A DNA stretch of 64,000 bases, taken from positions 20,225-84,224 of the forward strand of contig JAEYOM010000123.1 in NCBI GenBank assembly GCA_023411715.1. Direction: 5' to 3'. Origin of the DNA: Bacillota bacterium. GTDB taxonomy: Bacteria > Bacillota > Clostridia > Acetivibrionales > DTU013. Position 1 is the first letter of the stretch; the number at the start of each line of letters is the position of its first letter. The notes under the pieces are model-generated. The model was not told where the DNA came from and did no database searches. It worked only from the letters and a program-made list of their open reading frames with translations. Shown here piece by piece: positions 1,360 to 11,386 of the stretch. Both the position numbers and the translations under genes were made by a program.

Positions 1360-4281
1360 TCAAGCCTGTTTCCTTTTAAGTTCATGTTCGGATCCGCTAT
1401 CGGGCTCCTGTACGGACTTTTTATTAAGCCGCTGTCCGGACTTTTTTTCAGGTTTGTTTTTCAATATTTTTTTAAGGAACTGCCCCGTATAGGATTCCGG
1501 TACGGTAGCCACCTCTTCCGGCGTACCGCTTGCGACTACCGTCCCTCCCTTGCCTCCGCCTTCCGGGCCCAGGTCGATCACGTAGTCTGCCGTTTTTATC
1601 ACGTCGAGATTGTGCTCGATAACCACAACCGAATTACCGGCGTCAACAAGGCGGTGCAGTATATCTACAAGCCTGTGAACATCCGCTATATGGAGTCCCG
1701 TCGTCGGCTCGTCCAATATATAAAGCGTCCTTCCGGTAGCCCTCTTTGACAGCTCGGTAGCAAGCTTGATACGTTGTGCTTCGCCGCCGGACAGTGTTGT
1801 CGACGGCTGTCCGACCTTGATATATCCCAGGCCTACGTCATATAAGGTTTCAATCTTTCTCTGTATGCGTGGGATGTTCCTGAAAAATTCAAGAGCATCT
1901 TCTACAGTCATGTCGAGCACTTCCGAGATATTCTTCCCCTTGTATTTCACATCGAGCGTTTCGCGGTTATAGCGCTTTCCCTTGCATACTTCGCATGGTA
2001 CGTATACATCAGGCAAAAAATGCATCTCTATTTTTATTATACCATCGCCGCCGCACGCCTCACAGCGCCCGCCCTTGACATTGAAGCTGAACCTTCCGGA
2101 TTTGAAGCCCCTCATTTTTGCTTCCGTCGTTTCGGCAAACACCTCGCGGATCAGGTCGAACACTCCCGTATAGGTTGCAGGGTTGGAGCGCGGTGTCCTG
2201 CCGATCGGTGATTGGTCGATATCGATCACCTTGTCGAGGTGTTCTATCCCCAGGATGGCATCATGTTCCCCTGCTCTTGTCCTGGCACCGTTCAGCTCCG
2301 ATGCCAGCTTCTTGTACAGTATCTCGTTTATGAGCGAGCTCTTGCCTGAACCCGAAACGCCTGTAACAGCTGTAAAAACACCAAGTGGTATGTTAACATT
2401 TATATTTTTAAGATTGTTTTCACGCGCGCCTGCGATCTTTATCCACTTACCGTTCGGCTTGCGCCTTTTTTCAGGTATCTCTATCCGCTTTTTACCGCTC
2501 AGATACAGACCTGTCTGTGAATTCTCATTGTTCTTGATATCGTCTATCGTTCCCTCAGCCACCACATATCCGCCGTGGATGCCCGGACCGGGTCCCATAT
2601 CTATGATATGGTCGGCTGCGTACATGGTATCCTCGTCATGCTCTACAACGATCAGCGTATTTCCCAGATCCCTGAGCCTTGCGAGCGTCTTCAGCAGCCT
2701 GTCGTTATCGCGCTGGTGAAGCCCTATGCTTGGTTCGTCCAGTATATAAAGAACGCCCATGAGCCCCGAACCGATCTGGGTCGCGAGCCTGATACGCTGC
2801 GCTTCTCCTCCCGAAAGCGTACCGGAAGACCTTGACAATGTAAGATAATCCAGACCAACATCTACAAGAAACCCTACCCTTGCATTGATCTCTTTCAATA
2901 TCTGGTGAGATATAATGGTATCTCTTTCGGAAAGTTTGAGGCCTGCAAAGAAATCCTTTATATCATTTATGGGAAGGCAGGTGAGCTCATTTATGTTTTT
3001 CTCTCCCACAGTTACAGCAAGAGTCTCCTTCTTAAGCCTCGCTCCGTGGCAGTCGGGACACGGATTGCTGCTCATGAATTCCTCATAATACTGCTTCATG
3101 CCGTCAGACTGCGTTTCCTTGTAGCGGCGTTCCATACTGTTGATAACGCCTTCAAAAGCTGCTGTGAACGTACCGCTGCCGTATTCCTTTTCATATGCTA
3201 TCTTGATCTTTTCGCCTTTTGTTCCATATAAAATAATATCGATTATATTCTCAGGCAATTTGTTGACAGGAGTCGATATCTTGAAGCCGTAATACTTTGC
3301 AAGCGCATTTAGGTACATCCTGGAGTAGCTGTCGCCATTCTCGAAATTCCAGCCTCCGACCTTGATGGCGCCTTCCTCAAGGGATTTACTACGGTCAGGT
3401 ATGATAAGGTCCGGATCCATTTTCATGAGAGTTCCGAGGCCGCTGCAGGTCGGGCATGCTCCGTAAGGGTTGTTGAAGGAAAACATTCTGGGCGTAAGCT
3501 CTTCTATGCTTATCCCGCAGTCGCTGCATGCAAAATTCTGGCTAAACAGCAATTCCTGTCCGTCTATCACATCAACTATCAGTATCCCGCCGCTCAGATG
3601 CAGCGAGGTTTCTACGGAGTCGGCCAGGCGCTTCATTATCTCAGGTTTCACTACCAGCCTGTCCACGACTATTTCAAGAGTATGCTTCCTGTTTTTATCC
3701 ATATTGATTTCTTCATTGATATCGCGTACTTCGCCGTCGACTCGGATCCTGACATAACCGTTTTTTCTGGCGTCTTCTATCAGCTTGTGATATTCGCCCT
3801 TCCTGCCTCTGACTACCGGAGCAAGCAGCTGAATTTTTGTACCCTCGTCGAGCGCCATTATGGAATCGACCATCTGGTCCACAGTCTGCTGCGATATCTC
3901 CTTGCCGCAGACTGGGCAGTGCGGTATGCCAACGCGGGCGTAAAGCAGCCTCAGGTAATCATAAATTTCAGTTACGGTCCCGACTGTAGATCTGGGATTC
4001 CTGCTGGTAGTTTTCTGATCTATCGATATTGCAGGCGATAACCCGCTTATATAGTCAACTTCGGGCTTTTCCATCTGTCCGAGGAATTGTCTGGCATATG
4101 CGGAAAGCGACTCGACATAACGACGCTGACCTTCCGCGTAGATAGTGTCAAATGCCAGCGAAGATTTGCCCGAGCCGCTCAGCCCTGTGATCACGACAAA
4201 TTTGTCCCTTGGTATCTCAATGTCGATATTTTTGAGATTGTGCTCTCTTGCTCCCTTTATGGAGATACTGTTCCTGTTCAT
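1360..4281 (-). CDS. uvrA: excinuclease ABC subunit A
   Basis: 973-aa ORF. N-terminus is [55 protein letters not shown]. It has two ABC ATPase modules (second P-loop [10 protein letters not shown]), LSGGEAQR signature motifs and Cys-cluster zinc modules. Confidence 0.98.
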
Positions 4282-4487: not shown

Positions 4488-4501
4488 CAAACACTTGTTC
4501 G
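4488..4501 (-). promoter_or_regulatory. putative LexA (SOS) operator overlapping the uvrA promoter
   Basis: The minus strand reads CGAACAAGTGTTTG, a GAAC-N4-GTTT box of the clostridial/Bacillus Cheo type. It overlaps a TTTGCA -35 that sits 18 nt from a minus-strand TATAAT at about 4461-4466, roughly 200 nt upstream of the uvrA start. Confidence 0.6.
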
Positions 4502-4516
4502 ATATTTTTTTCAAAT

Positions 4517-5701
4517 TCAGTGCAGATGCTTCTTTATCAAGCCTGCCAATACTTTGATCCCCTCCGTGATCTTTTCCTCCGGCATATTTGAAAAGTTCAA
4601 TCTCATGGTATTTTTACCCCCGCCGTTCGGGAAGAAAGATTCTCCGGGCACAAAGGCCACATTGCTGTCAAGGCTCTCTGCGAGAAGCTCCCTCGTATTT
4701 ATATCGCCCTTGAGTTCGACCCATGTGAACAGTCCGCCTTCAGGATGAGTAAAACGGGTGCCTTCCGGGAATTCGGAAAGTATCGCCTCATGCATGGCGT
4801 CACGCCTGCCTTTATATACCTGCCTTATCCTGTCGATATCCTCGTCGAGGTCGAACAAATCCATGTATGCGGAAATATTGCGCTGAGTGATATTGGATGA
4901 ATGAAGGTCGGCGCCCTGCTTTACAAGTACATATTTCTCCAGTATTTTTTCGTCGGCGGCCACCCAGCCGATTCTCATACCCGGACAGAAAACCTTTGAA
5001 AAGGTACCCAGATATATGACGAAACCTTCCGTATCGAGAGATTTGAGGGAAGGCATAGTTATTCCGTCAAAGCGGAGCTCACTGTATGGAGCGTCCTCCA
5101 GCACGGGTATATTGCGCCCCTTAAGCAGTTCCATGAACCTTTCTCTGCGTACGGCAGACCATGTCCGTCCGCTTGGGTTCTGGAAATCCGGTATTGTGTA
5201 GATCAGCTTTATGTTTCTTTCCGTGTCAAGGATACGTTCAAGCTGTTCAGGCAGCATACCGTCGTCGTCGGTAGGCACCTCCAGCATTTTTGGGCTGTAT
5301 GCGTTGAAAGCATTTATCGCGCCAAGGTATGTCGGACTTTCACAGAGTATCGTATCACCCTCGTTTATGAATATTTTTCCCGTAAAGTCAAGGCCCTGCT
5401 GGGAGCCGCAGGTCACAAGGATGTTGTTTTCAGAAAGGCCCGTACCGAACCTGCGGTTCATTCTTTCGGCGATCTTGCGGCGCAGCGGCGTATAGCCCTC
5501 CGTAGCCGCATACTGCAGAGCGTCCGCACCGGATGCTTCGAGCACCCTGACCGTTACCTCCTTGAGCCTTTCTACGGGAAAAAGCTCCGGAGCCGGCAGG
5601 CCTCCCGCAAATGAGATCATTCCGGGTCTGTCCGTCAATTTAAGCAATTCTCTAATATCGGAAGCTTTCACGTTGTCCATTCGTCTGGCCAATTCAAACA
5701 T
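4517..5701 (-). CDS. PLP-dependent aminotransferase, class I/II (2-aminoadipate/aromatic aminotransferase-like)
   Basis: Motifs seen include ...LQYAATEGYTPLRRKIAE..., ...IYTIPDFQNPSG..., ...LGTFSKVFCPGMRIGW... (PLP-lysine SK motif) and ...MRLNFS.... The probable start is MFELARRMD at 5701; the ORF is open to 5719. Confidence 0.85.
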   Translation of the reverse strand: MFELARRMDNVKASDIRELLKLTDRPGMISFAGGLPAPELFPVERLKEVTVRVLEASGADALQYAATEGYTPLRRKIAERMNRRFGTGLSENNILVTCGSQQGLDFTGKIFINEGDTILCESPTYLGAINAFNAYSPKMLEVPTDDDGMLPEQLERILDTERNIKLIYTIPDFQNPSGRTWSAVRRERFMELLKGRNIPVLEDAPYSELRFDGITMPSLKSLDTEGFVIYLGTFSKVFCPGMRIGWVAADEKILEKYVLVKQGADLHSSNITQRNISAYMDLFDLDEDIDRIRQVYKGRRDAMHEAILSEFPEGTRFTHPEGGLFTWVELKGDINTRELLAESLDSNVAFVPGESFFPNGGGKNTMRLNFSNMPEEKITEGIKVLAGLIKKHLH

Positions 5702-5773
5702 ATTAACACCTCGCCTCATATTTATCCGGTTTATAGATATATTTATCCTATCCGGTTTATGGATAAGATTTAT

Positions 5774-7306
5774 CTAGATTATAGGCCCGAGCTCATTAAT
5801 GACGCTCCTGCCGTATTTTTTTTGTTCCCCGCTTATATCCCGATATGCCGCGGCAAGCCTTTTTACGCCTTCCCTGATCTGCGCGGGAGCAGGGTATGTA
5901 AAATTGAGTCTTATGTAATTGCCCGAAGGACTGCCGGGAAAAAATACGTTTCCCGGAACGAATGAAACGCCTTTTTCCATTGAATTTGCAAGAAGCCTGG
6001 TCTGCAGCATTCTTTCGGGAAGCCTGCACCACAGGTACAGACCGCCTTCAGGCCTGTTCCACCTCAACCCTTCAAGGTCCGCGCTTACCAGTTCCGAAAT
6101 CATAAGATCCCTGCGGCTTCTGTTTTCACAGTTTGCCTTTTCGATATGCTCCTTCAGCAGCCCCTCTCGCAGGAAGCGATCGATTATTAGCTGCGGAAGG
6201 CTGCTCGTATGCAGATCGGCCACCTGCTTGAGCATGGTAAGGCGGTACAATACCTGCGGCGGCGCCGTTATCCAGCCTACCCTGAATCCGGGAAACAGCA
6301 GCTTCGAAAAAGTGCTGAGATACAGCACATTACCGTAACCGTCCAATGCTTTCAGGGCAGGCAGGGCATTACCTTCATACCGCAGCATGCCGTAGGGGTC
6401 ATCCTCCAGGATTATAAGCTGGTTCCTTAAAGCCGCCGACAGCAGCTGCTTTCGCCTTTCCAGGCTCATTACCGCACCCGATGGATTCTGAAAATCCGGT
6501 ATTGTATATATCAGTTTCGGCTTGAACCTTTTGATGAGCATATCCAGCAGATCGGTGCGCATCCCGTCCTTATCGGTCGGGATTCCGATAACCCGCGCTC
6601 CAGCAGCTTTAAATATATGTACGGCGCTGAAAAAGGTCGGTTCTTCCGCCAGCACAACGTCGCCGGCGTCGATAAATGCTCTTGCCACAAGGTCGAGACC
6701 CTGCTGTGAACCTGTCAGTATCATTGTATCCGCTGCGTTTGCCTGTATCCCGCGGCCCCGCATAAGCTCACAGACACTTTCCCTCAAAGACGGGTATCCT
6801 TCAGTTGGTGTATGCTGGACCGCAACAATGCCATGACTCTTCAGCACCTCCGACTGTATGCGCCCCAGTGCTTCAAGCGAGTCCGGCCCCGGAACGGTCA
6901 CACCGGCCGCGAACAATATCGTATCCCTCCGGGCTGCCCCGAGAAGATCCCGCACCGTAGTATCCTGAATACGCATGGAACTTTCGCTGAAAAGCTGCTC
7001 CCACGGCATCGGCGGCATAGCGGCGCTGCTTCTGTCAGCGCTCTCCAAAACCGAATTTTCCGGGATCCGGCTCTGTGTTACAGTCGTTCCCTGGCCGATA
7101 TGCGAATCGACAAACCCGCCGGCTTTCAGTTCCCTGTACGCGTTAAGCACCGTAGTCCTGTTCACCTGGAGTTCTTCCGCCAGCTTTCTCTCCGGAGGCA
7201 GCCTGCTACCTGCGGGCAGAGAACCCGACAGGATGAGCTCCCTGATACTCAGGCTTATTTGCAGATACATCGGCGTTTTGCTTTCTCTGTCGATACTGAT
7301 TTGCAT
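5774..7306 (-). CDS. MocR/GabR-type transcriptional regulator (GntR wHTH fused to an aminotransferase-like domain)
   Basis: The N-terminal GntR helix-turn-helix is ...LPPERKLAEELQVNRTTVLNAYRELKAGGFV.... A fold-type-I aminotransferase domain follows (...IYTIPDFQNPSG..., ...LSTFSKLLFPGFRVGW...). The probable start is MQISIDRE at 7306; the ORF is open to 7345. Confidence 0.9.
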   Translation of the reverse strand: MQISIDRESKTPMYLQISLSIRELILSGSLPAGSRLPPERKLAEELQVNRTTVLNAYRELKAGGFVDSHIGQGTTVTQSRIPENSVLESADRSSAAMPPMPWEQLFSESSMRIQDTTVRDLLGAARRDTILFAAGVTVPGPDSLEALGRIQSEVLKSHGIVAVQHTPTEGYPSLRESVCELMRGRGIQANAADTMILTGSQQGLDLVARAFIDAGDVVLAEEPTFFSAVHIFKAAGARVIGIPTDKDGMRTDLLDMLIKRFKPKLIYTIPDFQNPSGAVMSLERRKQLLSAALRNQLIILEDDPYGMLRYEGNALPALKALDGYGNVLYLSTFSKLLFPGFRVGWITAPPQVLYRLTMLKQVADLHTSSLPQLIIDRFLREGLLKEHIEKANCENRSRRDLMISELVSADLEGLRWNRPEGGLYLWCRLPERMLQTRLLANSMEKGVSFVPGNVFFPGSPSGNYIRLNFTYPAPAQIREGVKRLAAAYRDISGEQKKYGRSVINELGPII

Positions 7307-7335
7307 AACAATCGGGCCTCTTTTCGATAATATGG

Positions 7336-7410
7336 TACCATCCAATTATAATTATACTGTATGAACAAGAGGAATAAACAACCAATTTGACAATATTGAT
7401 ACCATCCAAT
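7336..7410 (-). promoter_or_regulatory. direct repeat TACCATCCAAT x2, candidate MocR operator
   Basis: Identical 11-mers occur at 7336-7346 and 7400-7410, 64 bp start to start, just upstream of the regulator gene. B. subtilis GabR is known to bind ATACCA direct repeats. Confidence 0.4.
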
Positions 7411-7560
7411 ATGAAACTCCTATTTTTTTTGGCAAAAAAAATGCCACCGTAAAGGCAGTCCGTCGCAAAACAGTATTAAGTTAGATATGGAAGAATGGCA
7501 CAGCGTATAAACTTTGTCATTCTCTCGTCTACATTTTTGATACTTTCGGAAGGGTTATGA

Positions 7561-7589
7561 TTGTCTGGTAAAAAAATATGTTGTATAAT
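7561..7589 (+). promoter_or_regulatory. candidate sigma-A promoter of the Fic gene
   Basis: TTGTCT (7561-7566), then 17 nt, then TATAAT (7584-7589), about 105 nt upstream of the ATG. Confidence 0.35.
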
Positions 7590-7694
7590 ATTACCAATGA
7601 TGATGATTTGCAATATTTCCATCTCAATGTAAGCAGAATAGCAAGGGTAAATCCTGATATCTAAGCTGTAATTCATGAGGATAGGGGTAGAAAA

Positions 7695-9164
7695 ATGCAA
7701 AACAAAAGTATTTGGAGCCCAATGGAGTTTGACCCAAAATGGGACGATGTAAAAACGGATAAATTTGATAATATCTACCCATCCTGGGAAAAAAGACGTA
7801 AAGAACTGGATAAGCATCCAGAGCAATATAAGCGTTTTATTGATCAGTTAAAAAGAAAACAAGCTATTGATACCGGTATTATCGAAAGAATGTACGACCT
7901 GAAAAAAGGTGTAACAGAAACTTTCATAAAAGAAGGGTTTGTAGATTCATACCTCCAGCATGGAGATACGGATATTGCCCCAAGTTTGCTTATGGATTAC
8001 CTTCGGGATAATTTTGATGCTATTGATTTTATATTCGATTTTGTAAAAAATGACCGGCAATTGAGTGTTAGTTACATTAAAGAACTTCATAGTTTGATTA
8101 CTCAGCATCAGGATTCAACAGATGCAATTGACCAGTTTGGCAATCGTATCAAAGTGACTTTGCTTAAAGGACAATTTAAACAGTACCCCAATAATCCCAT
8201 GAGAGATGGCGTAATTTATAACTATTGTCCACCTGAACAGGTTGACGCTGAAATGGATAATTTAGTTGATATATTTAATAAAAAGCTTAAGAATTCGCAT
8301 GTTTTAATTAAAGCAGCTTTCCTTCATCATGCTTTTGTTCAAATACATCCGTTTCAGGACGGGAATGGACGTATTGCTCGCTTATTAGCAAGCTTTGTCC
8401 TTATAAAGGAAGGTCTCTTTCCACTTTCAATTGATCGTGATGATAGAACAAAATATATTGGCGCCTTGGAAAGCGCTGATATTCATGTTTATCAACCCAT
8501 AATCGACGTCTTTGCCAATAATCAAATTGCTTCAATAGAGCGATCGCTCAATTGGAAAACCGTTGAAGACACAACAGGGTATGATAATATGCTGGATATG
8601 CTGAGTAAAAAGCTATCTGATTATCGAGCTGAAGCGGCAGAACAGCAAAATAGGCGTATACTCAGCAATATGCTAAAGATTTTTGAAATAATAAAACTTC
8701 AAATTAGGCATTTCCAGGATAATTTAACTCAAAAACTGAACGCAAAAATTGATATCAATTTTTGTGCTCCAAACGAGCCCCAGTCTTACTACTACGCAAG
8801 ACAAATCATTGATTACGCTAACAAATTTGATTATTATGTGAATTTGTCCTTGAATAAATGTTGGGGACGAATGTTTATTGAAATTGACGATACGAAAAAA
8901 TACCGTCTGATATTATCTCTTCACCATTATGGCTATGACAGCAGCACTTTTGCCATCGGTGCATTTCTCTCTAAAGCAATCTTAGAGGGAGCAGAAAACC
9001 AAGCGGAAGGAGAAGTTCATAGGGAGTATATGGATATCCCGCTAGGCATCCCTCCCCTTACAATGTCTTCCGAAAAGGAAGTTACAGAATTAGCCCCATC
9101 TATTCGTCAGGAGATAGAAGCATCTGTTATGGCCGTCCTTGCTTTTATTGCAAATGAGCTTTAA
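7695..9164 (+). CDS. Fic/DOC family protein (AMPylase-type fold) with a roughly 250-aa uncharacterised C-terminal region
   Basis: HPFQDGNGRIARLL matches the canonical Fic motif HxFx(D/E)GNGRxxR. The 489-aa ORF lies in a visibly AT-rich segment. Confidence 0.9.
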   Translation: MQNKSIWSPMEFDPKWDDVKTDKFDNIYPSWEKRRKELDKHPEQYKRFIDQLKRKQAIDTGIIERMYDLKKGVTETFIKEGFVDSYLQHGDTDIAPSLLMDYLRDNFDAIDFIFDFVKNDRQLSVSYIKELHSLITQHQDSTDAIDQFGNRIKVTLLKGQFKQYPNNPMRDGVIYNYCPPEQVDAEMDNLVDIFNKKLKNSHVLIKAAFLHHAFVQIHPFQDGNGRIARLLASFVLIKEGLFPLSIDRDDRTKYIGALESADIHVYQPIIDVFANNQIASIERSLNWKTVEDTTGYDNMLDMLSKKLSDYRAEAAEQQNRRILSNMLKIFEIIKLQIRHFQDNLTQKLNAKIDINFCAPNEPQSYYYARQIIDYANKFDYYVNLSLNKCWGRMFIEIDDTKKYRLILSLHHYGYDSSTFAIGAFLSKAILEGAENQAEGEVHREYMDIPLGIPPLTMSSEKEVTELAPSIRQEIEASVMAVLAFIANEL

Positions 9165-9216
9165 CAGAAGCAGTACGCTTGCAACGAGGCATCATATACT
9201 TCCATGAAGTATATGG

Positions 9217-9264
9217 CCCACAAAACACTTTCCGCTTCACGGCGAAGTGTCTCGTGGGTTCTTT
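9217..9264. terminator. compound hairpin between the convergent fic and uvrB 3' ends
   Basis: CCCAC..ACACTT..CGC pairs with GCG..AAGTGT..GTGGG and is followed by TTCTTTG on the plus strand. A second perfect 10-bp hairpin lies at 9193-9215 (CATATACTTC/GAAGTATATG). Confidence 0.45.
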
Positions 9265-9272
9265 GAGTGAAC

Positions 9273-11255
<1,983 letters not shown>

Positions 11256-11372: not shown

Positions 11373-11386
11373 CAAACAGATGTTCG
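11373..11386 (-). promoter_or_regulatory. putative LexA (SOS) operator upstream of uvrB
   Basis: The minus strand reads CGAACATCTGTTTG (GAAC-N4-GTTT). It lies immediately upstream of, and overlaps, a -35-like element that is followed by a minus-strand TATAAT at about 11349-11354. Confidence 0.6.

Follow-up and report, generated by a model that had tools for sequence, protein, structure and literature searches.

Organisation of the locus

The window analysed here, a 64-kb stretch of bacterial DNA, carries an intact open reading frame of 489 amino acids (7695–9164, plus strand) that encodes a Fic-domain protein, with the ribosome-binding site AGGGGTAG preceding its ATG. The gene is bordered by a MocR-type regulator gene (5774–7345, minus strand) and by uvrB (9273–11255, minus strand). 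The first-pass annotation of this DNA had placed it between uvrB and uvrA. In fact, uvrA (1360–4281) lies two genes further away, with the MocR-type gene and an aminotransferase gene standing between it and the Fic gene. The features of the region are as follows:

7333–7410, no strand: left boundary of the host sequence, with two direct repeats TG(G/A)TACCATCCAAT that represent a MocR-type operator region belonging to the host and lying outside the insert
7411–7520, no strand: left, non-conserved part of the insert, with an A8/T8 palindrome (7422–7442) and a terminator-like hairpin of the minus strand followed by T8 (7444–7458)
7521–7694, plus strand: promoter, 5'UTR of about 100 nt and ribosome-binding site, from the promoter scan and conservation among copies
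7695–9164, plus strand: Fic gene, 489 aa, comprising an N-terminal extension, inhibitory helix, Fic core and alpha/beta C-terminal domain
8562–9161, plus strand: coding region of the C-terminal domain (residues 290–489), from the AF2 model and conservation
9165–9268, no strand: two hairpins (9193–9215 and about 9220–9262) between the convergent Fic and uvrB genes

The GC content over 7200–9200 is 0.35–0.37, compared with 0.48–0.58 in the immediate flanks. At a GC content of about 36% against about 50%, the segment from about 7.4 to 9.3 kb is AT-richer than its surroundings, as had been noticed earlier. This local drop is real but not unique, as 16% of the 1.8-kb windows across the 64 kb are equally AT-rich.

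Evidence for a horizontally acquired single-gene cassette

Comparison with related genomes revealed that the spacer between the MocR-type gene and uvrB is empty in six relatives (G003, G018, G022, G024, G012 and G019). In two congeners (G001 and G002), the same spacer holds genes for an AraC-like regulator and a methyltransferase instead. The Fic gene is therefore a lineage-specific insertion at a variable site. Similarity to the relatives stops directly after position 7410, and the TG(G/A)TACCATCCAAT repeats are kept upstream of the MocR-type gene in G001, G003 and G018. Elsewhere, close copies of the Fic gene occur in at least five unrelated contexts, and the promoter, 5'UTR, open reading frame and both 3' hairpins are shared with copies located in such contexts. 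Since the sharing extends from promoter to hairpins, this unit of about 1.7 kb moves as one self-contained cassette. The comparison of presence and absence among relatives, which had been suggested as a check, thus bears out the proposal of a horizontally acquired single-gene cassette. The region from about 7411 to 9270 is very probably such a one-gene cassette, inserted in a normally short MocR–uvrB spacer and encoding a solitary class II-type Fic enzyme.

A promoter scan located the sequence TTGTCT-17-TATAAT at 7561–7589. The −10 block of this promoter, an element of the kind first proposed for the gene, is kept in five of six independent cassette copies. A block GATTGT...TGTATAATAT is common to the copies in the window, in D. 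gibsoniae, in G018 and at loci L204 and L026, while the 5'UTR is conserved with the D. gibsoniae copy and partly with that at L206. No known RNA or riboswitch was matched in the 5'UTR in Rfam. The Fic promoter contains no LexA/Cheo box, and the two good boxes of the region are found upstream of uvrA and uvrB; SOS control was rejected on this basis.

At the other end, the two hairpins with which the segment was said to end are both present and move with the gene, being conserved in the D. gibsoniae and L204 copies. The empty site of G003 has a different hairpin, and the hairpins of the cassette take the place of the native uvrB terminator. Neither flanking direct repeats nor terminal inverted repeats were seen at the cassette ends, and transposon- or integron-like ends were rejected for this reason. 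The presence of its own promoter also separates the unit from a typical integron cassette. The left part of the insert (7411–7520) could be aligned neither to the empty sites nor to the other cassette copies, and its probable role is to shield the divergent MocR promoter from the cassette.

In comparison with the D. gibsoniae copy, the Fic gene shows a dN of 0.054 and a dS of 0.68 (dN/dS of about 0.08) and is under strong purifying selection. The locus represents a clean example of how a bare promoter–ORF–terminator unit spreads by landing in a short intergenic spacer, and sister species have independently captured other cargo in the same spacer. For the host genome the find is an ordinary one, a single accessory gene. 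Overall, the horizontal acquisition of this gene, a member of a large unstudied Fic subfamily, is genuine, if fairly ordinary.

Distribution and genomic neighbourhood of the family

Fic enzymes constitute a major and poorly understood class of bacterial protein modifiers. Most of them, BtFic among them, have to our knowledge no established target or activating signal. The gene of the window had been described as an orphan, which is misleading: its family comprises at least 530 representative clusters (50% identity) at E ≤ 1e-30, with proteins of mostly about 490 aa, spread over many phyla in a phylogenetically scattered manner. Of 400 other genomes taken from across the phylum, only one had a member, as did one of the 40 relatives compared. 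Full-length copies were detected neither in 50,697 phage records (INPHARED) nor in 72,556 plasmid records (PLSDB), and IMG/VR yielded only two full-length relatives. The family is uncharacterised, large and locally rare.

The absence of an adjacent small antitoxin gene, already remarked on in the first-pass annotation, was confirmed. No credible small partner ORF lies on either side of the Fic gene, where only frames of 20–46 codons occur, lacking a ribosome-binding site and the (S/T)xxxE(G/N) motif. These frames are not conserved, since indels break them in the D. gibsoniae copy. An all-against-all BLAST at 51 loci revealed no recurrent neighbour. Likewise, among 135 immediate neighbours at 45 loci, searched with Pfam and PADLOC, no family appeared more than twice; these neighbours are mostly metabolic or housekeeping genes, with a handful matching defence models.

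The Fic core

The loop H218-PFQDGNGRIAR229 (HPFQDGNGRIARLL) corresponds to the canonical HxFxDGNGRxxR motif, and residues 123–236 match the Pfam Fic model (PF02661) with 79.1 bits against a cut-off of 24 (E 4.5e-22). The active-site motif is therefore as perfect as originally reported. All 77 relatives examined retain H218, P219, D222, N224, G225, R226 and R229. The full-length AF2 model (pLDDT 93.4, pTM 0.90) retrieved 3cuc as the top Foldseek match, with 281 columns and a target-normalised TM of 0.78, followed by FICD, CdFic and SoFic, all four with a probability of 1.00. The closest structure by sequence is likewise 3CUC (E values of 7e-23 and 2.4e-26), again followed by FICD. By its loop, profile match and modelled fold, the protein can be assigned to the Fic/Fido superfamily (PF02661) as a putative enzyme of the AMPylating type, with AMP transfer as its predicted activity.

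Other Fic types were considered. A Doc-type kinase or an AnkX-type phosphocholinase was rejected because the loop is the canonical GNGR form and not HxFx(D/N)(A/G)NKR or HxFxDANGR; the DOC_P1 model scored 14.5 bits against a cut-off of 38.65. A class III protein resembling NmFic, of about 190 aa with a C-terminal inhibitory helix, was rejected in view of the length of 489 aa. The C-terminal segment S469-IRQ-E473-I lacks the G/N, its E473 is not conserved in the family consensus, and PDB matches to NmFic reached only E values of about 0.2.

The putative inhibitory helix

The putative inhibitory helix, T60-G-I-I-E64-R65, is located N-terminal to the Fic core, with E64 lying 154 residues before H218. 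Of the 77 relatives, 76 retain T60, and all retain G61 and E64. Three canonical short class II Fic proteins have SGRIEN, SNRIEG and SGKIEN at this place, with their Ile and Glu aligned to I63 and E64. The alignment with class II Fic proteins, part of a check that had been recommended, thus brings TGIIER into register with the class II motif and shows by sequence comparison that it occupies the position of the (S/T)xxxE(G/N) inhibitory helix. The G/N that class II proteins carry right after the inhibitory Glu is here R65. Arg is the majority state of the family at this position: of the 77 relatives, 52 have R, 9 have G, 7 have N and the remaining 9 some other residue.

TGIIER had been described as the only similar N-terminal element, keeping the Glu without the final G/N. 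The second half of this description stands, whereas the first does not, as T76-FIK-E80-G81 also fits the (S/T)xxxE(G/N) pattern literally. This second element was rejected as the true inhibitory motif and regarded as a chance match, because E80 is kept in only 34 of the 77 relatives. Homology to proteins whose inhibition mechanism has been described for classes I–III (PMC3667792) suggests an inhibitory role for Glu64. Nevertheless, auto-AMPylation is on record for CdFic even though its inhibitory Glu is intact (table in PMC8097203), and inhibition of the window protein at rest is therefore not guaranteed.

The C-terminal domain

The C-terminal region, first given as about 250 aa that match nothing recognisable, indeed has no known match, but its extent is closer to 200 aa (residues about 290–489). 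Structure prediction, one of the checks proposed, yielded a confident fold (AF2, pLDDT 94.0, pTM 0.86) made up of an antiparallel beta-sheet and two long helices, one N-terminal and one C-terminal. Within it, H410 and G413 are invariant, and A375, Y380 and W390 are conserved. Foldseek searches returned nothing significant in the PDB (best E 4e-3, TM 0.31) or in BFVD, and neither PDB sequences nor Pfam provided a match. A YfbU domain (PF03887) was rejected at 17.2 bits against a cut-off of 25 (E 0.0057), with any match present in only 2 of 77 relatives and no fold support.

This domain almost never occurs without the Fic part, the exceptions being 24 short hits that are mostly fragments. A stand-alone version was likewise rejected, as its best candidate (P0291), located next to an IS200-type transposase, probably arose by truncation. 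The domain may act as a sensor, or it could instead serve as a target-docking or dimerisation module. Since the subfamily is large and its C-terminal domain has neither annotation nor a structural relative in the PDB or BFVD, solving the structure or finding the target of a single member would annotate thousands of genes.

Possible mechanism and function

In class II Fic proteins, the side chain of the inhibitory Glu blocks the site of the ATP gamma-phosphate, and replacing this Glu by Gly activates the enzyme. By analogy with SoFic, NmFic and FICD, Glu64 would reach into the active site at rest and hold ATP in a non-productive pose. A signal would relieve this inhibition, either through binding of a ligand or partner or through a change of oligomeric state transmitted by the C-terminal domain. 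The released enzyme would then move AMP from ATP onto a Thr, Tyr or Ser of a target protein, which may belong to the host or to a phage. The reverse step, removal of AMP, may occur as well while Glu64 is engaged, as is the case for FICD, EfFic and SoFic.

Among the roles such an enzyme could have, we tentatively regard as possible that of an accessory regulatory enzyme that puts AMP on an endogenous protein and takes it off again, comparable to FICD acting on BiP or SoFic on EF-Tu, with the C-terminal domain docking the substrate and a possible link to DNA damage or stress. The strong purifying selection is consistent with this role, as is the intact inhibitory Glu, which is required for deAMPylation in FICD, EfFic and SoFic (PMC6826200; 10.64898/2026.07.09.737422). 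A solitary gene with its own promoter and mostly housekeeping neighbours also fits. In a mouse-gut relative (L028–L030), the Fic gene stands between WYL and GyrI-like genes on one side and SRAP and IMS (Y-family) polymerase genes on the other, and the uvrB neighbour in the window likewise hints at DNA damage or stress. However, the adjacency to uvrB is an accident of insertion, because the MocR–uvrB site is empty in relatives, and the Fic promoter lacks a LexA/Cheo box. For a core regulator, an occurrence in roughly one of every 400 genomes of the phylum, and in one of 40 relatives, would also be odd.

A role in conflict or anti-phage defence, raised at the outset, found no specific support. 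In its explicit form, a SoFic-like single-gene abortive-infection system would be released from auto-inhibition by phage infection and would AMPylate an essential host factor (e.g. EF-Tu) or a phage protein, halting phage growth. Such defence is established for SoFic (10.1101/2022.05.11.491447; PMC12249575), and the horizontal acquisition and patchy distribution of the gene agree with it. Some close copies have surroundings of a mobile or defence-like kind. The D. gibsoniae copy lies amid HNH, PD-(D/E)XK and AAA_15/21 genes, and other close copies are found near a prophage portal and terminase or near a Mob_Pre relaxase. The PADLOC SoFic and PDC-S04 models match with E values of about 1e-25, but the PADLOC and NCBIfam matches cover the Fic core alone and the architecture is unlike that of SoFic. 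Further points against defence are the mostly metabolic or housekeeping neighbours, with no neighbour recurring at the 45 to 51 loci, the absence of a small downstream anti-toxin like AS1 of EcSofic, and the lack of full-length copies in the phage and plasmid collections. An anti-phage role is thus neither supported nor excluded by these data, and we consider the explicit SoFic-like form unlikely.

In a further scenario, which we regard as quite improbable, the C-terminal domain would represent a new fold for sensing or target recognition, confined to this Fic subfamily, through which a specific signal (such as a small ligand, a phage component or a damaged macromolecule) would release the Arg-variant inhibitory helix. 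If true, one-gene, signal-gated AMPylation switches of this kind, travelling on a minimal promoter-to-terminator cassette, would form a class of their own, new and widespread. Finally, the toxin of a type II toxin–antitoxin pair (class I Fic, VbhT/VbhA- or FicT/FicA-like) with an overlooked antitoxin gene is extremely improbable and already contradicted: although Fic toxins with small antitoxins are common and the protein weakly matches the NCBIfam model "mobile mystery protein B" (42.9 bits against a cut-off of 124), the flanks hold no small ORF with a ribosome-binding site, inhibitory motif or conservation, the 51 loci share no neighbour, and the inhibitory helix is supplied in cis.

Comparison with known Fic systems

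The solitary class II-type enzyme proposed here can be compared with several characterised or closely related Fic proteins. SoFic (Shewanella oneidensis SO_4266; PDB 3EQX/3ZCN) is also a solitary class II Fic with an inhibitory Glu in cis, and its activity is under the control of the C-terminal domain and of dimerisation (PMC12249575). It differs in having an N-terminal Fic_N (DUF4172) domain and a C-terminal winged-helix domain, to which the C-terminal fold of the window protein is unrelated, and the window locus has no AS1-like downstream gene. Membership in the SoFic single-gene defence family was rejected, as NF046030 scored 38.2 bits against a cut-off of 550 and the PADLOC SoFic model was matched only at positions 98–219 of 361.

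Human FICD/HYPE and Fic-1 of C. elegans, class II enzymes that AMPylate and deAMPylate BiP, share the Fic core and the N-terminal TxxIE(G/N) helix (PMC8097203), and FICD was matched structurally with an E value of about 3e-9. As a precedent, these enzymes change between AMPylation and deAMPylation by a Glu-dependent switch that responds to the oligomeric state (PMC6826200). FICD acts in the eukaryotic ER, on a known target. Unlike the window protein, it carries an N-terminal TPR domain, is anchored in the membrane and lacks a C-terminal domain.

Short class II Fic proteins of 255–269 aa from the same and related genomes (e.g. G000:C135, G021:C152 and G007:C66) align over about residues 18–262, with SNRIEG and SGRIEN falling opposite TGIIER at the inhibitory motif. 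They carry the canonical G/N, lack the C-terminal domain and are 21–23% identical.

The best match in both sequence and fold is the class II protein BtFic of Bacteroides thetaiotaomicron (BT_2513, PDB 3CUC). At 291 aa and 24% identity, BtFic lacks the 200-aa C-terminal alpha/beta domain, and the window protein has an Arg instead of G/N after the inhibitory Glu. Nevertheless, the HPFxDGNGRIARLL loop is common to both, and the fold match spans the whole of residues 1–285, including the N-terminal part.

Genomic setting of the Fic gene

The window represents contig 22 of a 210-contig, 4.18-Mb assembly and carries an intact 489-codon ORF preceded by a ribosome-binding site (AGGGGTAG). The encoded protein contains a Fic domain at residues 123–236 (Pfam; E 4.5e-22, 79 bits against a cut-off of 24) and the canonical catalytic loop H218-PFQDGNGRIAR229. 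The first-pass annotation had placed the gene between uvrB and uvrA, which holds only loosely, since the gene order (uvrA, aminotransferase, MocR, Fic, uvrB) makes the MocR gene and uvrB its immediate neighbours.

Features of the window around the Fic gene
1360–4281, minus strand: uvrA
4488–4501: Cheo/LexA-box-like site (CAAACACTTGTTCG) upstream of uvrA
4517–5719, minus strand: aminotransferase gene
5774–7345, minus strand: MocR/GabR-type regulator gene
7333–7410: MocR-type operator direct repeats TGNTACCATCCAAT, present twice (TGGTACCATCCAAT and TGATACCATCCAAT, 64 bp apart); host sequence
7695–9164, plus strand: Fic gene
9273–11255, minus strand: uvrB
11373–11386: Cheo/LexA-box-like site (CAAACAGATGTTCG) upstream of uvrB

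The GC content across ~7200–9200 is 0.35–0.37, compared with 0.48–0.58 in the flanks on either side, and the segment is therefore locally AT-richer, as first described. Equally AT-rich composition was observed in 16% of the 1.8-kb windows within the 64-kb window, so the dip is real relative to the flanks but not extreme. In comparison with the Desulfoscipio gibsoniae copy, the Fic gene exhibits a dN of 0.054 and a dS of 0.68 (ratio ~0.08), and it is a functional gene and not a relic.

No LexA/Cheo box was identified in the Fic promoter, whereas good boxes are present at uvrA and uvrB; the adjacency to uvrB thus looks accidental. A 67%-identical homologue (loci L028–L030, 4076–9636), observed on many contigs, at least one of them from a mouse-gut sample, is located between a WYL regulator with a GyrI-like protein and SRAP, an SOS-response peptidase, with a Y-family polymerase. 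This DNA-damage-type neighbourhood provides the only pointer towards a functional connection with uvrB here.

Insertion at the MocR–uvrB spacer

Among 40 relatives, the Fic gene was absent from all three congeners, and a full-length orthologue was found in one genome only, G018 from another genus, whose 83%-identical copy occupies another site, flanked by a deoC-like gene and by SDR genes. The MocR–uvrB spacer is short (~85 to ~520 bp) and ORF-free in six relatives (G003, G018, G012, G022, G024 and G019). In the congeners G001 and G002, this spacer is occupied by a different two-gene insert, comprising an AraC/GyrI-like regulator and a SAM-dependent methyltransferase (L021 2101–3870 and L022 2299–4065, respectively, corresponding to window 7411–9272). 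Given this different cargo at the same site, the spacer is a recurrent landing site for foreign genes. The proposal of horizontal acquisition is therefore sound, with the spacer of other relatives either empty or filled with other genes.

The MocR operator repeats, which all of these genomes keep ahead of their MocR orthologue, congeners and other genera (G018) alike, end at window 7410, and similarity to relatives starts again at the uvrB stop codon (9273). These boundaries place the foreign segment at ~7411–9270, in agreement with the limits proposed in the first-pass annotation. Neither a target-site duplication nor terminal inverted repeats were found at the insert. The hairpins of the cassette stand in place of the native uvrB terminator, which is present in G003, where the site is empty.

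At its left, non-conserved end (7422–7458), the insert contains an A8/T8 palindrome (ATTTTTTTTG/CAAAAAAAAT) and a minus-strand terminator-like hairpin followed by T8, both facing the MocR promoter. Additionally, the linker that joins the HTH domain of the G019 MocR orthologue (L200 1–798) to its aminotransferase-like domain carries a long insertion of low complexity, rich in Gly, Met and Ser.

A mobile promoter-to-terminator cassette

Close homologues (77–89% amino-acid identity) were identified in at least five other, unrelated contexts.

Contexts of close homologues
Desulfoscipio gibsoniae copy: amid HNH, PD-(D/E)XK and DUF3841 genes
G018 and two JGI contigs: deoC–SDR context
L204 copy: adjoining a Mob_Pre relaxase gene
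L206 copy: between dUTPase and TetR genes
L026 copy: prophage edge, adjoining portal and terminase genes

Flank alignment revealed a promoter, TTGTCT-17-TATAAT, at 7561–7589, with the -10 block kept in five of the six copies. The ~100-nt 5'UTR is shared for the most part with D. gibsoniae and in part with L206, and both 3' hairpins (9193–9215 and ~9220–9262) are common to the D. gibsoniae and L204 copies. The promoter-like element and hairpin end noted earlier thus recur in other contexts, and the conserved unit extends from ~7520 to ~9265 of the window, or ~1.7 kb. Across the wider family, the Fic gene is nearly always AT-richer than its flanks, as in L026 (GC 0.36 vs 0.55) and L061 (0.43 vs 0.59).

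At L204 1244–2455, the relaxase gene directly beside the 85%-identical homologue represents a plausible transfer vehicle. Flank similarity between the D. gibsoniae and L204 copies reaches further than that with the window copy and takes in extra hairpins (GGGCCAACTTGGCCC on the upstream side and GTGTGG..CCACAC on the downstream side). A perfect 10-nt inverted repeat was also observed, with one arm in the 5'UTR (ATTTGCAATA, 7606–7615), also kept in D. gibsoniae and L206, and the other in the last codons, IANEL (TATTGCAAAT, 9146–9155). It may reflect chance, an operator, or 5'–3' mRNA pairing.

Fic core and inhibitory helix

The best PDB relative by sequence is BtFic (3CUC; E 7e-23, or 2.4e-26 with the family profile), with FICD next. 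The AlphaFold2 model of the whole protein, based on 77 diverse full-length relatives, is highly confident (pLDDT 93.4, pTM 0.90), and its first ~285 residues match the entire BtFic (Foldseek: 281 columns, target-normalised TM 0.78), with FICD, Fic-1, CdFic and SoFic as the next matches. BtFic, the closest characterised structure, has no known function (PMC8097203).

In Fic proteins, the inhibitory Glu forces ATP into a non-productive pose, and an E-to-G substitution relieves inhibition in all three classes (PMC3667792). The suggestion that TGIIER is the inhibitory element was confirmed and sharpened: T60 is conserved in 76 of the 77 relatives and G61 and E64 in all of them. When the protein was aligned together with three canonical short class II Fic proteins, drawn from this genome and related ones, I63 and E64 fell in register with their SGRIEN, SNRIEG and SGKIEN motifs. 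At position 65, 52 relatives carry Arg, 9 carry Gly and 7 carry Asn, so that the textbook TxxxE(G/N) occurs in a minority of the family. Arg65 represents the normal state of the subfamily and not a lesion of the window copy, and the protein is predicted to be class II-like, departing from the strict motif at one position. A literal pattern match twelve residues downstream, T76-FIKEG81, is a coincidence, as E80 is kept in only 34/77.

A private C-terminal domain

In the model, residues ~290–489 open with a long helix, continue into an antiparallel sheet of five to six strands accompanied by two short helices, and end in a second long helix at the C-terminus. A separate model of this domain, based on 50 sequences from the retrieved loci, reached a pLDDT of 94.0 and a pTM of 0.86. 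H410 and G413 are invariant, and A375, Y380, W390 and P454 nearly so. The first-pass annotation had recognised nothing in the C-terminal region, and no known domain was matched in Pfam, in the PDB (coiled-coil noise only by sequence; best Foldseek E 4e-3, TM 0.31, not significant) or in BFVD. A YfbU match was rejected, being sub-threshold and seen in 2 of the 77 relatives only. Of the proteins detected with the domain profile, only 24 were shorter than the full-length family, and most of these were truncations or fragments at contig ends; the domain is essentially confined to this Fic subfamily.

Distribution, neighbours and possible role

An exhaustive HMMER search against 1.84 billion representatives yielded 9277 matches at E <= 1e-3, of which 530 reached E <= 1e-30, the top matches being mostly ~490 aa and aligned end to end. 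Members in named genomes include Bacillota, Bacteroidota, Verrucomicrobiota, Cyanobacteria, Chloroflexota, Acidobacteriota, Planctomycetota, Myxococcota and Alpha-/Gammaproteobacteria, yet the C-terminal profile was present in only one of 400 other genomes sampled evenly from the phylum of the window. This wide but locally rare and patchy distribution is the hallmark of an accessory gene that spreads horizontally.

When the ORFs within 4 kb at 51 loci were compared all-against-all by BLAST, no recurrent neighbour emerged, the largest cluster being generic SDRs (5 loci). Similarly, no Pfam family occurred more than twice among 135 immediate neighbours from 45 loci, which were chiefly metabolic or housekeeping proteins (ribosomal S2, RuvB, purH, UbiA, oxidoreductases). 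PADLOC detected only scattered defence types among the neighbours (one C5-methylase, one type I S subunit, one AbiEi and few others). For the Fic protein itself, PADLOC/NCBIfam matches (SoFic, PDC-S04, mobile mystery protein B) covered the Fic core only and scored far under the equivalog cut-offs. Neither the 50,697 phage records nor the 72,556 plasmid records searched contained a full-length copy, and IMG/VR contained two full-length family members only.

As to function, endogenous regulation is a tentative proposal. Phage defence, the role speculated on at first, is somewhat less probable: single-gene Fic defence has precedent (10.1101/2022.05.11.491447; PMC12249575), but the neighbour, phage/plasmid and PADLOC/NCBIfam results lend it no specific support here.

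The Fic enzyme encoded here stands alone, without a partner gene, and is under selection. Its AMPylation loop is complete, its inhibitory helix is supplied in cis, its C-terminal domain is private, and the gene has its own promoter and terminators; we hold this structural and evolutionary description, as a whole, with good confidence. The resting enzyme would be held off by Glu64 until a signal, acting via the C-terminal domain or a change in oligomeric state, frees it to AMPylate a target protein; while the Glu is engaged, the enzyme may work as a deAMPylase. Precedents for such release are FICD (PMC6826200) and EcSofic (PMC12249575). While the Fic part is well known, the libraries searched contain no description of the C-terminal fold of the subfamily or of the inhibitory motif in its Arg form.
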